Source of the DNA: a virus
DNA length: 7,229 nt
IMG/VR virus record: IMGVR_UViG_3300008251_000119
Reading direction: 5' to 3' (one strand)
The position numbers were made by a program, and so were the translations under genes. Each line of letters starts with the position of its first letter. The stretch's first letter is position 1. The notes under the pieces were generated by a model. That model was not told the origin of the DNA. It searched no databases and worked only from the letters and a program-made list of their open reading frames with translations. Shown one piece after another: positions 1-6,769 of the stretch.

Positions 1-123
1 GAGCGATACCAAGACAAAGAATCATCATCAATATTTTGCTCTAATTTCTTGTTATAAATACGCCAATAAATTTGGCTTGTTCTTTTTCCAACTCTCAACA
101 TTTCTTGAGAATAAATATGATTA
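1..123. repeat. Direct terminal repeat copy 1 (circular assembly overlap)
   Basis: Compared base by base, it is identical to 7107-7229 (gagcgataccaagacaaaga...ataaatatgatta). Confidence 0.97.
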
Positions 124-842
124 AATTTATCGTCATACGTAAAAATATTATCAGGGTGACAACTTAAAGGCCGACAAGCCTTTCCAACTCTAAAGAAACC
201 ATCTTTATAAGCAGCAAGCGCATATTCACAATTAAAATTATTGTCATAATCATCACGCGCTAAATCTATACGAGATAATTTAGTAATACCCAAGACTATT
301 GAAAGCCAGTAATGCAATTTATATAAATCAATATGCGCTAATAAATGTTTACAACCTGAGCCAGTAATTTGAATATAAGCAGTGTTATTTTGACCACCAA
401 TCGCAACGAACCCCGCAACAACCCCATCACTTGTTAAAAGATTCATTGAATTTGAATATCCGAAGAAACCTTTATCAGATGGTAAAGACAATTCAAAACC
501 AAGAACGCGAGATACAAACGCTTTTAAACACGTTTCATAGAAATCCTGTAATTCACCTTGAATACGAACACGCTCTTTTTCAATATCATCTAAATTAAGT
601 ACTTGAGTATTTTTAACGACTGGCGGAGCAGGAAACGGACTTTTTGCATGGCAAATATCAGTTTTCTTACCATGTTTAACAGGTAAATTTAAAATCTCTG
701 ATTTATGACAGTGACGAAGTTGAGGTAATGAAATTGTAAAAGCTAAAAAATCCACTTTAATATTTTGGCTAGACTTAACACGAGTCTCTAAAAGACGTGT
801 AGCAGTATTATTGTAAAGTTTACAGAAAGGCTTATTTAACAT
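1..842 (-). CDS. Rolling-circle replication initiator (Rep_trans / RstA-like, pII functional analog), N-terminal 280 codons; the gene continues across the circular junction into 7106..6773 for 391 aa in total
   Basis: My hand translation from ATG 842..840 is open all the way to base 1, and the nearest upstream in-frame stop is at 851..849. It is in frame with the 144-aa track ORF through the junction (842-101=741=3x247). The protein starts MLNKPFCKLYNNTATRLLETRVKSSQNIKVDFLAFT and contains RIDLARDDYD and GKRTSQIYWRIYNKKLE. From memory, these resemble conserved blocks of Rep_trans-type initiators. This ORF is not in the supplied track because it runs off the window edge. Confidence 0.8.
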   Translation of the reverse strand, partial: MLNKPFCKLYNNTATRLLETRVKSSQNIKVDFLAFTISLPQLRHCHKSEILNLPVKHGKKTDICHAKSPFPAPPVVKNTQVLNLDDIEKERVRIQGELQDFYETCLKAFVSRVLGFELSLPSDKGFFGYSNSMNLLTSDGVVAGFVAIGGQNNTAYIQITGSGCKHLLAHIDLYKLHYWLSIVLGITKLSRIDLARDDYDNNFNCEYALAAYKDGFFRVGKACRPLSCHPDNIFTYDDKFNHIYSQEMLRVGKRTSQIYWRIYNKKLEQNIDDDSLSWYR

Positions 843-1036
843 TAGATTTCACCCTGTTCAACAAGCTGTCTGTAATTGCTATCCGTTATTTCAATAACTT
901 CAGCATTTGAAAACTCATCAGAAATCCACATCCAAAAAAATGACAATGTAGATAAAGAATCATAAGTACGCTCACCGTCTAAATCGTAAGTTACTAAAAT
1001 TCCAATATGTGGCACATTCTGATAATAAATTTTCAT
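842..1036 (-). CDS. Hypothetical 64-aa protein, first gene of the minus-strand operon, translationally coupled to rep
   Basis: Its stop overlaps the rep start as TAATG (844..840). A weak SD (acGGAtatATG) precedes it. I see no recognisable motif and no TM segment. Confidence 0.5.
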   Translation of the reverse strand: MKIYYQNVPHIGILVTYDLDGERTYDSLSTLSFFWMWISDEFSNAEVIEITDSNYRQLVEQGEI

Positions 1037-1170: not shown

Positions 1171-1359
1171 ATGCCCGCTAAACACATAGATGACGCGACT
1201 TGGAGACTAATTGAAAAGGAAACTTTAAAAGTAGTTTTAAAGACTGAAAAAATTTTCAAAGAAACTGAAATTTTAAAAGCACTTTTGTTAAAAGGACTAA
1301 ATACAATAGATGTTTATGAATATGAGGAGATCTTAAAAAAAGCAAAAAAGGGAAAGTAA
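1171..1359 (+). CDS. Small (62 aa) putative DNA-binding regulator, positional analog of inovirus repressors (RstR-type position), possibly ribbon-helix-helix-like
   Basis: It is the only plus-strand gene and is divergent from rep. It is followed by a clean intrinsic terminator. The residue pattern suggests a short N-terminal strand (KHIDD) followed by two amphipathic helices (ATWRLIEKETLKVVL and ETEILKALLLKGL) and a Lys-rich tail. The SD is weak (AAGG 10 nt upstream). Confidence 0.45.
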   Translation: MPAKHIDDATWRLIEKETLKVVLKTEKIFKETEILKALLLKGLNTIDVYEYEEILKKAKKGK

Positions 1360-1433: not shown

Positions 1434-1463
1434 AAACCCACGTAATACAGCACGTGGGTTTTT
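1434..1463 (+). terminator. Rho-independent terminator for the 62-aa gene
   Basis: A 10-bp perfect stem pairs aaacccacgt (1434-1443) with acgtgggttt (1452-1461) around an 8-nt loop. The stem runs into ttttt (1459-1463). Confidence 0.75.
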
Positions 1464-1551: not shown

Positions 1552-1579
1552 AAGACCCATAAATACCATTATGTTACGG
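1552..1579 (+). other. dif-like (XerC/XerD-type) recombination site candidate, module A
   Basis: AAGACCCATAA-ATACCA-TTATGTTACGG, compared with E. coli dif GGTGCGCATAA-TGTATA-TTATGTTAAAT. The XerD-arm TTATGTTA and the inner XerC-arm CATAA are conserved at the canonical 6-bp spacing. Confidence 0.45.
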
Positions 1580-1648
1580 CTAAAACACGCTTTCAGCGCA
1601 AGCGGTTTTATTGGCCCTATGCTCCGCATTTTAGGACCAAAAAGCACA

Positions 1649-1686
1649 AAGCCCCTGTTTGCTTCGCACAATTTTAACAGGGGCTT
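1649..1686 (-). terminator. Long hairpin, possible terminator of the minus-strand operon and/or part of the structured ori/attP region
   Basis: An 11-bp perfect stem pairs aagcccctgtt (1649-1659) with aacaggggctt (1676-1686) around a 16-nt loop. On the minus strand it is followed by tgtgcttttt. It lies just downstream of the 43-aa ORF. Confidence 0.35.
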
Positions 1687-1687
1687 A

Positions 1688-1716
1688 CTCAACATAACGC
1701 TGCTCCCATTTATGGG
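1688..1716 (-). other. dif-like module B, inverted relative to module A
   Basis: The minus strand reads CCCATAAAT-GGGAGCAGCG-TTATGTTGAG. It shares CCCATAAAT and TTATGTT with module A, but the spacer is 10 nt instead of 4 nt. Confidence 0.4.
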
Positions 1717-1841
1717 CTATTAATAATATGTTCGGGTTTAGATTTATAACCCCAATAAAAAACAACAGCAACTGGCGAGCTAATCAAAAGCACCCAATTA
1801 ATTACAAGCATATAAATAATTTCCATAACATCACTTGTCAT
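1710..1841 (-). CDS. Small hydrophobic membrane protein, 43 aa (MTSDVMEIIYMLVINWVLLISSPVAVVFYWGYKSKPEHIINSP), not in the ORF track
   Basis: I translated it by hand. A strong SD (AAGGTGAtttATG) precedes it. It has one clear TM segment followed by a basic stretch, and the 1649-1686 hairpin follows it. Confidence 0.5.
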   Translation of the reverse strand: MTSDVMEIIYMLVINWVLLISSPVAVVFYWGYKSKPEHIINSP

Positions 1842-2095
1842 AAATCACCTTAACTGTATAAATGTCCAGTACTATCAAGTATCGGACTTAAATCATTGAT
1901 ACTAAAAGAATGTTTATCATGGGAGAAATGAAAACTTTCTTCTCAAATATAATTTTGTGGCTCACCATCATCTATGCACTTGACGAATTCCGACAATGAC
2001 CCGTCTTGACTATCTTCAATTCAAACTAACAGTTTACCGATATTTCAACCATCACGGACACAGGCTTATCATGGCTACGCCATCAAAAACAACAA

Positions 2096-3472
2096 TCACA
2101 ACTCAACATTCAAATCACCCTCTGAACTCTCAACAGACTCAACCTCAGAATATTTAACAGGAGCAAAAGGCACAAACTTGAAGCCTGAACCATCCGAAAC
2201 TTTCACAATAGATTCAGACAAATACTCCAACTTATACCCCATATTTACCAAATCATCACCCGAAACATAAAAATCATCACCATCGATTTTTAACACAAAT
2301 AAAAAACTATAAGTAATAGAACTGACAACCTCCACCAAACCACTAACAACCTTAAAAACTTTAGGTTTATAAGTCTTATTTATTGCAGTTAAATAAATAG
2401 AATCTGCATCAAAAGGAATCACTAAAGCACTAGGAGCTTTAAAAACAGCCTCAGAGCTAACATTACCATTAATAAAACCATTACTTTTTTGAACACCTTT
2501 AGAATCAACTTGAGCAGAAACTTGAACTTGACCATTAGATAATTGAACAGCTTGTACTTTTTCAACTGGTTTAGAACTAGAAGCGCTAGACGTACGAAAG
2601 AACACCACGTAAATAATAAAAACCGCAGCGGCAATAAAAACGGCAGAGCCAAGTAATAAAGACAAAGTAATAGGCGAGTTGCCAGCACCTGAATTTGTTG
2701 ATTGCCCTGTGGCAGTTGATTTATAGATTTTAAAGACATCAAGAGGAATTTTCCTAAAAGTTGTTATATCACCCTTTTTTACAGAATTACCATTAGAACT
2801 AGGCAAATGCTCAAGGACACGAGGACGGCGTTTAAAGTAAGGGATTGGGACAGAATCTTTAGAGCTATGAGCATAGGCAATCTCACAAACCGAGCGAATA
2901 AACCCCGCAACCTCTTTAATATCAGGAGTTGCCAACACAATATCCCAGTTAAAATGACGATGACGCATAAACGATTCACGCAAGGTCGGAGGGTATTTAA
3001 TATAATCACGTTCATCAAAAATACTTAAACCGATATCATCTTCATAATCTGCAATATTTACATTTTGCTTAATTACCCTTTGCTTTTCGTGGTACAGCTC
3101 AATAACGTCTTTGGGTAACTCACTATCAAAAAAACCCTCTTCTTTATAATCATAATCAGAAGCTTTAAAAGTTCTATCGTTTGGATAAATATCCTGAATT
3201 TCATCAATAAAGATAAAAGCCCCAATCGGCAACCAATGATAAAAACACCGCATAAGTTTACGACCCGTATCATTATTAGAAGATATACGAACTAATCGAG
3301 CTGAAGCAGGAAAAACAACATTTAACTCAGAAGAAATTTCTTCAAGCGTTTTTATGCCTTGAAGATTAGTAACAACTAAACGCCCTGCTTTTAAAGCTTC
3401 CAGTAATTCAAACCAACAAACAGTAGATGATTTATAGGAACCTGGTGGGCCGTGAAATATTTTAGTAGCCAT
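2096..3472 (-). CDS. zot: Zot-family / pI-like phage assembly ATPase (458 aa)
   Basis: It has an N-terminal Walker A (GPPGSYKS, aa 8-15), a Walker B-like FIFIDEIQ, and a single central TM (ITLSLLLGSAVFIAAAVFIIYVVFF) followed by a ~150-aa C-terminal domain. It sits right after the pVI-like gene, with SD GGTGG before the ATG. Confidence 0.9.
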   Translation of the reverse strand: MATKIFHGPPGSYKSSTVCWFELLEALKAGRLVVTNLQGIKTLEEISSELNVVFPASARLVRISSNNDTGRKLMRCFYHWLPIGAFIFIDEIQDIYPNDRTFKASDYDYKEEGFFDSELPKDVIELYHEKQRVIKQNVNIADYEDDIGLSIFDERDYIKYPPTLRESFMRHRHFNWDIVLATPDIKEVAGFIRSVCEIAYAHSSKDSVPIPYFKRRPRVLEHLPSSNGNSVKKGDITTFRKIPLDVFKIYKSTATGQSTNSGAGNSPITLSLLLGSAVFIAAAVFIIYVVFFRTSSASSSKPVEKVQAVQLSNGQVQVSAQVDSKGVQKSNGFINGNVSSEAVFKAPSALVIPFDADSIYLTAINKTYKPKVFKVVSGLVEVVSSITYSFLFVLKIDGDDFYVSGDDLVNMGYKLEYLSESIVKVSDGSGFKFVPFAPVKYSEVESVESSEGDLNVEL

Positions 3473-6412: not shown

Positions 6413-6769
6413 CTAACCTTTATATTCTTGTAATGACTTTCTAAAATGTTCAGCCAACTTTGGATCAACTGGGATTATTTCAACAACTTCATTATCAAAA
6501 GTATCAACATTAAAATCGAATTTAAGCTCATACTCTTTATCTTTAACAAAAGCACCAGAACGACCAATTTTCTGAGCATAATCAACATTCATAACAATGG
6601 CATTTTTACCAAAAGGTACATCTGTAGTAGTACCCCAAGACTCACGCTTAAACTTTGGCGAATCAACATTTTCATATGGATATAAAACTTTCATTTCACA
6701 AACTTTCTTTTCTGGATTCTTTGATTCAGGAAAGCTAGTAACACCAAAACCCGCAATTATAATTCCCAT
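6413..6769 (-). CDS. Putative ssDNA-binding protein (gene V / RstB positional analog), 118 aa
   Basis: It lies immediately downstream of rep. The SD GGAG sits 6 nt upstream and overlaps the rep stop (GGAGTAAAAAATG). Its size suits a pV-like OB-fold protein, but I recognise no motif. Confidence 0.5.
   Translation of the reverse strand: MGIIIAGFGVTSFPESKNPEKKVCEMKVLYPYENVDSPKFKRESWGTTTDVPFGKNAIVMNVDYAQKIGRSGAFVKDKEYELKFDFNVDTFDNEVVEIIPVDPKLAEHFRKSLQEYKG

Follow-up and report, generated by a model that had tools for sequence, protein, structure and literature searches.

CTXphi, the cholera toxin phage, has no integrase, and its phage attachment site, attP, is a folded single strand, a mechanism demonstrated experimentally (PMC3442271, PMC3089051; Val et al. 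2005 as reviewed there). This attP is made of two inverted modules resembling dif: a long-spacer one, AGTGCGTATTA-TGTGGCGCGGCA-TTATGTTGAGG, and, after a gap of 89 nucleotides (nt), an inverted short-spacer one, AATGCGTATTA-TACGCCA-TTATGTTACGG. We read the pair from the CTXphi/RS1 array JN545745.1 with the same pattern as used below, and it is identical to the published attP1/attP2; the CTX-G variant has a 6-nt short spacer (PMC3089051 Table II). Phages of the VGJphi or f237 type, also filamentous, dependent on host Xer and devoid of integrase, use instead one duplex site with a 7-bp centre and integrate reversibly. A folded attP of this kind is commonly regarded as peculiar to the cholera toxin phage and a few enterobacterial relatives. 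Here we examine IMG/VR record IMGVR_UViG_3300008251_000119, a stretch of 7,229 nt (the window) which comprises a circular phage genome of 7,106 nt and a 123-nt terminal overlap. Its positions 1552-1720 very probably constitute a CTXphi-type folded attachment site, attP(+), of a CTX-type integrative mobile element exploiting Xer, a reading to which we give a probability of about 85%. A XerCD-dependent folded attP had been proposed for this region from the letters of the sequence (the original prediction), and it is now supported by homology to CTXphi, by the fold, by the junctions of integrated relatives and by the match to a host-type dif, dependence on Xer being what this homology would imply.

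The two modules are inverted and 107 nt apart (Table 1). Module A displays the architecture and the arm matches to dif that had been claimed for it, whereas module B, present on the opposite strand as announced, is better taken in slightly different limits, as an 11-12-11 site. CATAA-N6-TTATGTTA is found once in the window against 0.06 expected. The nonamer CCCATAAAT occurs in exactly two copies, inverted, at 1556-1564 (+) and 1708-1716 (-), against 0.18 expected, and each stands beside TTATGTT (1569-1575 (+) and 1691-1697 (-)), so that coincidence is unlikely, as the prediction had argued. The heptamer alone is not rare (4 found for 3.5 expected). When the pair was defined loosely, as [CT]AT[AT]A-N5-8-TTATGTT facing an inverted [CT]AT[AT]A-N9-14-TTATGTT at 40-250 nt, only one of 3,000 dinucleotide shuffles of the genome satisfied it.

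Both strands of 1540-1730 were folded in silico as single-stranded DNA, and the stem, the bubble and the three enclosed hairpins were all recovered as predicted. The minimum-energy folds reach -33.6 and -39.2 kcal/mol (z = -5.8 and -6.0), and none of 200 shuffles was as stable as the native one. The stem consists of 9-10 bp from the CCCATAAAT copies and 7-9 bp from the TTATGTT copies, separated by an asymmetric 4/10-nt bubble in which 1565-1568 lie opposite 1698-1707; the central regions thus count 12 nt versus 6 nt. Hairpins at about 1582-1609, 1611-1640 and 1649-1686 are enclosed in the fold of both strands. As a positive control, the CTXphi region folded under the same parameters adopts the same topology.

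The resemblance with CTXphi goes down to single bases. Both sites combine a long module, with a 12-nt centre and a TTATGTTGAG arm, and a short module, with a 6-7-nt centre and a TTATGTTACGG arm, placed head to head some 90-107 nt apart in a forked hairpin. In the window the short centre counts 6 nt, as in the CTX-G variant. The non-consensus XerD arms agree nearly base for base, that of module A being identical to the CTXphi short-spacer one, and positions 8-9 of the XerD arm are mismatched in the folded stem of both. Along the coding strand the order is the same: long-spacer module, fork, short-spacer module, ori(+) hairpin, divergent small gene, Rep and single-strand binding protein, with no integrase, and relatives display the same junction signature (the left end carries the host XerC arm, the right end a regenerated dif). 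Since architecture, spacer lengths, XerD arms, spacing and genomic position agree, we consider the module pair a sequence-level homologue of the CTXphi attP. It differs in its XerC arms, which are of CCCATAA type whereas Vibrio phages have GCGTATTA, and in its fork, with three inner hairpins instead of two. Moreover, the window phage carries no toxin genes but a collagen-repeat pIII and an extra upstream palindrome, motif P. Beyond filamentous phages, the site also recalls integron attC, which likewise exists only once one strand folds and where a single strand exchange is completed by replication, but the recombinase there is IntI and the site sequence is another one, unrelated to dif.

Integrated relatives show where recombination takes place. 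A profile of Rep homologues retrieved 44 genome and 52 metagenome loci, to which DNA pattern scans of IMG/VR added more; loci are designated by L-numbers. Three independent cases, L150, L022 and L072, display the CTX-type signature. In L150, a complete L075-type prophage, the left end reads P-52 nt-ACTACCTATAA/TTTGTACGAGGCG-TTATGTTGAGT (the slash marks the junction), and then continues through the fork and an intact module A into the phage genome. Its right end reads ATAGCCTATAA/TTTATA-TTATGTTAAAT, then the same flank as in the empty sites L140 and L118 (P-52 nt-ACTACCTATAA-TTTATA-TTATGTTAAAT-flank). Host homology breaks within CCTATAATTT, and in the free phage L075 the arm is ATAGCCTATAA. L022 comes from Pseudoalteromonas rubra S2676; it reads ACTTCCTATAA-TGTGAGAGCGGCG-TTATGTTTAG at its left junction and ATATCCTATAA-TTCATA-TTATGTTAAAT at its right one, and its module A (8120-8148) is intact. 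The left arm ACTTCCTATAA and the right TTCATA-TTATGTTAAAT together make up the empty dif of L125; in a related host the syntenic locus (L080) is occupied by another phage. L072 is a tandem array whose copies 1 and 2 differ in the outer bases of the XerC arm and are 100% identical beginning with its CATAA, and whose end on the same contig (L148) reads ACTGCTCATAA, the phage arm, followed by -ATTATG-TTATGTTAAAT, a chromosome II-type dif; its left flank offers no usable host marker. Similarly, in the CTXphi array the host arm AGTGCGCATTA is found at the leftmost copy only.

These integrated relatives show that the crossover lies at the boundary between XerC arm and central region of the long-spacer module and that dif is regenerated on the right. 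The original prediction was to be abandoned if related prophages sat elsewhere than at dif; they sit at dif with hybrid junctions in L150 (compared with L140 and L118), L022 and L072/L148. The centre of the long-spacer module starts with the same one to three bases as that of the target dif: TTT in L150, ATT in L072, TGT in CTXphi and T only in L022. The window centres start with ATG and ATA, and the centre of the host dif is therefore predicted to begin with AT.

At least six distinct lineages of marine phages have the pair upstream of Rep, as do the CTX-like Vibrio prophages L041 and L052, and dozens of relatives carry it overall (carriers include L022, L040/L080/L086, L058/L071, L072, L073, L075-L084 and L111-L114). 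Module A is conserved in L022, L040, L072, L075 and others; module B keeps a 9-13-nt centre and its inverted orientation across distant phages and covaries with module A. In an alignment of eight sites the consensus structure retains both stem segments and the three inner hairpins, with compensatory changes in 17 of the 40 pairs, including pairs of all three inner hairpins. Within the stem, the first central base is paired as A-U in four sites and U-A in three, position 10 of the XerD arm as G-C in five and A-U in three, while positions 8-9 are always mismatched. The module seems to move between phage backbones, since the carriers L111 and L112 have unrelated replication genes.

The arms also point to a type of host. 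In the supplement passages of PMC2731167 that list them, the dif sites of P. haloplanktis TAC125 are ACAACCTATAA-TTTATA-TTATGTTAAAT on chromosome I and ACAGCCCATAA-ATTACG-TTATGTTAAAT on chromosome II. With the latter, which may not be the dif of the phage's own host, module B shares 10 of 11 XerC-arm positions and the first two central bases, hence 12 of 13 (ATAGCCCATAA-AT against ACAGCCCATAA-AT); a candidate-host dif thus resembles the modules, which favours the prediction. The inner XerD arm TTATGTT is common to both, whereas the outer arm is AAAT in dif but GAGT and ACGG in the phage, and the length of the module B centre differs. This chromosome II dif is also present in L117. Among the CCCATAA and CCTATAA passages retrieved from the same supplement, P. 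haloplanktis provides the only gammaproteobacterial dif sites. A scan with the canonical E. coli/Vibrio dif consensus failed on every Alteromonadales site, the XerC arm being CC[CT]ATAA there, a difficulty resolved with published dif tables. XerC arms of the phages divide in the same way, GCGTATTA in Vibrio phages and CC[CT]ATAA in the marine relatives. Since module B matches the chromosome II dif, the phage XerC arm appears to follow the host dif type, as CTXphi follows the dif of V. cholerae. The host is thus probably Pseudoalteromonas-like, with a target dif resembling that of chromosome II.

We adopt the folded single-strand mechanism because of the homology to CTXphi, where it was shown experimentally. 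In CTXphi, the nick made by RstA was mapped between G and T in the apical loop of the origin hairpin CCCCCGT-CTAGTATTA-CGGGGG (PMC4439123). The window has a putative counterpart (Table 1), in which Rep would nick CTG/TATTA between 1448 and 1447, and such a hairpin is present in nearly all RstA-type relatives. From its orientation and from the gene sense we infer that the minus strand is the displaced, packaged one. Module B would then fall on the packaged strand, as in CTXphi. On this strand module B (1720-1687) and the complement of module A (1579-1552) would anneal as the stem of a forked hairpin, with B as top and A' as bottom strand. The stem would supply a XerC-binding arm (CCCATAA paired) and a XerD-binding arm (TTATGTT paired, outer positions 8-9 mismatched), and the central region between them would have six extra unpaired bases on the top strand. 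Host XerC and XerD would bind this folded site and the chromosomal dif; XerC would cut the top strand between 1710 and 1709 and exchange it with the top strand of dif, XerD remaining non-catalytic, and the resulting pseudo-Holliday junction would be resolved by replication. On the left, the host XerC arm is expected to run into ATGGGAGCAGCG-TTATGTTGAGT, and module A should be found intact and inverted some 110 bp further into the prophage; on the right, a regenerated dif composed of ATAGCCCATAA, the host centre and TTATGTTAAAT is predicted. XerC arms and the AT of both centres would predict a host dif like that of Pseudoalteromonas chromosome II.

Several observations weigh against this reading. 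Taken alone, the prophage junctions fit recombination of folded single-stranded DNA and a double-stranded reaction at module B alike, as the same junctions would be expected from both. The latter would, however, involve a 12-bp centre, which would be unusual, Xer core sites normally having centres of about 6-8 bp, and it leaves unexplained the conserved, covarying inverted partner. The XerC arm is paired at 7-8 of its 11 positions, versus 10 of 11 in CTXphi; the binding protein belongs to DUF1293, whereas RstB of CTXphi belongs to PF07459; and the central bases matching the best candidate dif are only two (AT). The G+C content of the phage, 34.7%, is probably below that of typical Pseudoalteromonas genomes. 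Neither an integrated copy of this phage nor a relative with more than 54% Rep identity turned up. In genomes the closest Rep relatives are Colwellia and Thalassomonas prophages (48-51% identity), in which a search for flanking direct repeats and dif-like sites returned none of the module type. The relatives from P. espejiana (L010, 17248-19424) and Colwellia sp. TT2012 (L016, 3-818 and 19607-20662) adjoin a tyrosine integrase next to dusA and are integrase-dependent inoviruses of the same Rep lineage. In a passage of PMC2731167, Colwellia psychrerythraea is given as lacking XerCD and dif, with which the integrase beside these relatives is in keeping. As guides to the site of this phage the Colwellia and Thalassomonas prophages are uninformative, the modules being absent and some of them lying beside an integrase. 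Since the closest Rep relatives lack the modules and some are linked to an integrase, replication and lysogeny modules assort independently, and Rep similarity is a poor guide to the host.

A last point to weigh is motif P, a near-palindrome 143 nt upstream of module B which provides a second candidate attachment site in the window. Its consensus is (T)ATGTCCGATAC-N6-GTATTGGAC(AT), of which no copy is expected by chance; the window copy is one mismatch off. P stands upstream of module B in some phages only (the window, L058/L071 and the L075 group). It is also met beside dif in many Pseudoalteromonas-type genomes; in about twenty IMG/VR loci that stem from isolate genomes it lies on the XerC side. 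There, the distances from P to dif are 42-43, 50-53 or 62 bp, with 31 bp at the right junction of L150, roughly at helical-repeat spacing; at chromosome II-type dif sites P lies about 700 bp away on the XerD side. An Rfam search for P as a tRNA or other RNA gene gave no match, and a literature search for its sequence only unrelated primer matches.

Integration could thus be imagined to proceed at P through another host enzyme, the pair being unused or host-restricted. In the prophage L060, P appears to be the crossover: the element has a P copy on either side, the two being distinguished by their right arm alone, as attL and attR would be, and P is the exact point from which it is homologous to the free circular L162, both phages being devoid of integrase and of module pair. 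Yet the phage type of L150, which has P and pair together, used the pair for its integration at dif, despite a host P 52 bp away. Moreover, the window P, in addition to its arm mismatch, has its own spacer (TTGATA), with no matching host P seen, and relatives bearing the pair without P still integrate (L022, L080). We consider this route improbable, taken together with its variant in which the phage would be purely episomal, as the finding of circular copies only might suggest. P might serve as a second target for host recombinases, as an accessory site to dif or as a release site of single prophages. Tentatively, and with the odds rather against it, the attachment region may be bipartite, unlike any described Xer-exploiting element, P being a new host-recombinase target or a dif accessory site; if so, the window phage could enter or leave the chromosome by either of two independent routes.

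Two other roles were considered for P. A general packaging signal is unlikely, as the pair-bearing relatives L040, L086 and the L022 phage are without P. A pseudo-origin nicked by Rep is speculation only: G/TATT is common to P and the ori loop but lies in the stem of P, not in a loop. A further conserved sequence, TGTAAGGGGTTGTTCATTTCTAGAAT, is found 20-60 nt to the XerD side of dif in L115, L118, L122, L125, L132, L134, L135 and L137-L139, duplicated in L138. Located at the edge of predicted 35-47-kb proviruses, it may be another attachment site beside dif.

Alternatively, module A alone, an 11-6-11 site, could act as a double-stranded attP in the replicative form, in the manner of VGJphi, module B being a relic or a regulatory copy. 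With its canonical 6-bp centre module A is indeed the better stand-alone dif mimic, and a single double-stranded dif-like attP is used by many Vibrio phages (PMC3089051 Table III). We nevertheless judge this very improbable: in every integrated relative with the pair, the short-spacer module stays whole and internal, about 100 bp inside, the crossover being in the other module and free-phage homology starting in the XerC arm of module B, and conservation of module B, of its centre and orientation in distant phages, together with its covariation with A, is not expected of a relic. Finally, the fold might serve primarily replication or assembly, as minus-strand origin or packaging signal, and resemble dif only incidentally. 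In favour of this, hairpins of the kind are found in this intergenic region of filamentous phages, short hairpins act as packaging signals in integrative Xanthomonas phages (bioRxiv 10.1101/2023.12.30.573655), and the three inner hairpins keep their structure, together with a TAAAAT-like loop and a TTTGTGGTTTT tract. We nevertheless consider this extremely improbable: the outer stem retains the sequence of XerC and XerD arms, these arms change with the host dif type, and integrated relatives recombine exactly there. An origin, which the inner hairpins may well hold, would be additive and not alternative.

The conserved elements of the fork lie at about 1640-1650 and 1655-1675 (-), where the first hairpin retains its TAAAAT-containing loop, followed by the TTTGTGGTTTT tract (alignment columns 58-92). 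Kept across lineages while the stems covary, they possibly represent a minus-strand origin or priming signal. The enclosed hairpins may thus additionally serve replication or packaging, for instance as minus-strand origin, which is compatible with the attP role.

An uncultivated marine inovirus now turns out to possess the same device, including its non-consensus XerD-arm bases, as do dozens of its relatives from Pseudoalteromonas-type genomes and metagenomes, which shows that the device is widespread outside Vibrio. That the XerC arm is re-tuned to a host dif of divergent type suggests that this lysogeny module is old and portable and not a Vibrio speciality. In addition, an orphan metagenomic phage gains a concrete prediction of host and chromosome, and a simple sequence rule becomes available for delimiting such prophages, which are often mis-called by automated tools. 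The natural series of arm and centre variants could be used to study Xer site selection, and the presence of motif P beside dif is a fresh lead on the control of these elements or of dif itself.

The window (G+C 34.7%) belongs to an inovirus, as deduced from its gene set: Rep, coat, adsorption and Zot/pI proteins, without a recombinase. All structural and replication genes are carried by the minus strand, with one divergent open reading frame (ORF) of 62 amino acids (aa). Besides the products listed in Table 1, the minus strand encodes an 84-aa protein, a major coat protein, an Ace-like minor coat protein and a Zot/pI assembly ATPase. The absence of an integrase or transposase gene, noted at the outset, holds: integrase, transposase or recombinase domains were not detectable among the window ORFs. 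Rep is 36% identical to RstA of CTXphi and 36-42% to Vibrio phage Reps overall. Compared with the RS2 module (rstR-rstA-rstB), Rep is RstA-like, but there is neither an RstB-family protein nor a helix-turn-helix (HTH) match, and the genes are analogous by position; in particular, Pfam gives no HTH match for the 62-aa ORF, whereas RstR of CTXphi has one. An identical Rep is found on three metagenome contigs of JGI, where copies of the phage are circular or fragmentary only. A whole-genome near-identity search of the phage collection, an exact look-up of the Zot protein and an IMG/VR scan with the module B centre as query gave no match, and an IMG/VR scan with the Rep protein returned only Vibrio-type loci at 35% identity.

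Table 1. Features of the attachment region and other elements of the window; positions outside the window are preceded by the locus label.
Feature	Position	Strand	Remarks
Module A, short-spacer dif-like	1552-1579	+	AAGACCCATAA-ATACCA-TTATGTTACGG; XerC arm 1552-1562, centre 1563-1568, XerD arm 1569-1579
Insert between modules	1580-1686		107 nt, three hairpins; forms the fork of the hairpin
Module B, long-spacer dif-like	1687-1720	-	ATAGCCCATAA-ATGGGAGCAGCG-TTATGTTGAGT; XerC arm 1720-1710, centre 1709-1698, XerD arm 1697-1687
Putative plus-strand origin hairpin	1437-1458	-	CCCACG-TGCTGTATTA-CGTGGG; homology to CTXphi ori(+) hairpin
Motif P, near-palindrome	1864-1887	-	GTCCGATAC-TTGATA-GTACTGGAC; 143 nt upstream of module B (coding direction)
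Other motif P copies	L022 7918; L080 8933; L060 8819, 16524; L075 3678; L115-L151		GTCCGATAC-N6-GTATTGGAC
RstA-type replication initiator (Rep_trans), N-terminal part	1-848	-	PF02486; 391 aa whole, crosses the circular junction into 7106-6773
62-aa ORF, putative regulator	1171-1359	+	At the CTXphi rstR position; phrog_5219 (function unknown); syntenic in relatives
43-aa hydrophobic ORF	1710-1841	-	Called as gene on identical JGI contig
Putative adsorption protein, 592 aa	3870-5648	-	Two long collagen-like G-X-Y repeat blocks (GADGIDGEK units)
Single-strand DNA-binding protein, DUF1293	6413-6769	-	Occupies the CTXphi RstB position

On the plus strand, the 1437-1458 hairpin with its T-run also resembles a terminator of the 62-aa ORF. 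The stop codon TAA of the 43-aa ORF (1710-1712) is formed by the final three bases of the module B XerC arm; since it ends this arm at the predicted cleavage point, the ORF would stay intact in both circular and integrated forms. In the sister phage L058 the counterpart of this ORF terminates earlier. The collagen-like blocks of the adsorption protein are encoded by near-perfect DNA tandem repeats, a feature common to L035, L112, L153 and L155.

Related arrangements were met in other elements. f237-like Vibrio and Photobacterium prophages (L025-L053) also carry an inverted pair, about 0.7-1.4 kb upstream of Rep, in which a perfect dif, AGTGCGCATTA-TGTATA-TTATGTTAAAT, faces xxxxxTTATTA-GGTATT-TTATGGTAAAT at about 70-100 nt; this suggests that fold-back sites may be in use beyond CTXphi proper. 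Ahead of the tandem prophages of L072 lies a 1.7-kb mini-element (1661-3327) with no phage structural genes and with its own pair, AAAGCCCATAA-ATTTAAGCCGCG-TTATGTTTAGA and ACCCCCCATAA-ATCCCA-TTATGTTACGG, which may be a satellite comparable to RS1 or TLC. Finally, arrays of 50-120-nt repeats spaced by about 1.0-1.4 kb stand beside prophages in the Colwellia loci L016 (1197-7878), L017 (16214-17277) and L023 (16255-18996); some of these repeats hold GTGCGCATT-like cores, and they may be cassette arrays or another family of mobile elements.

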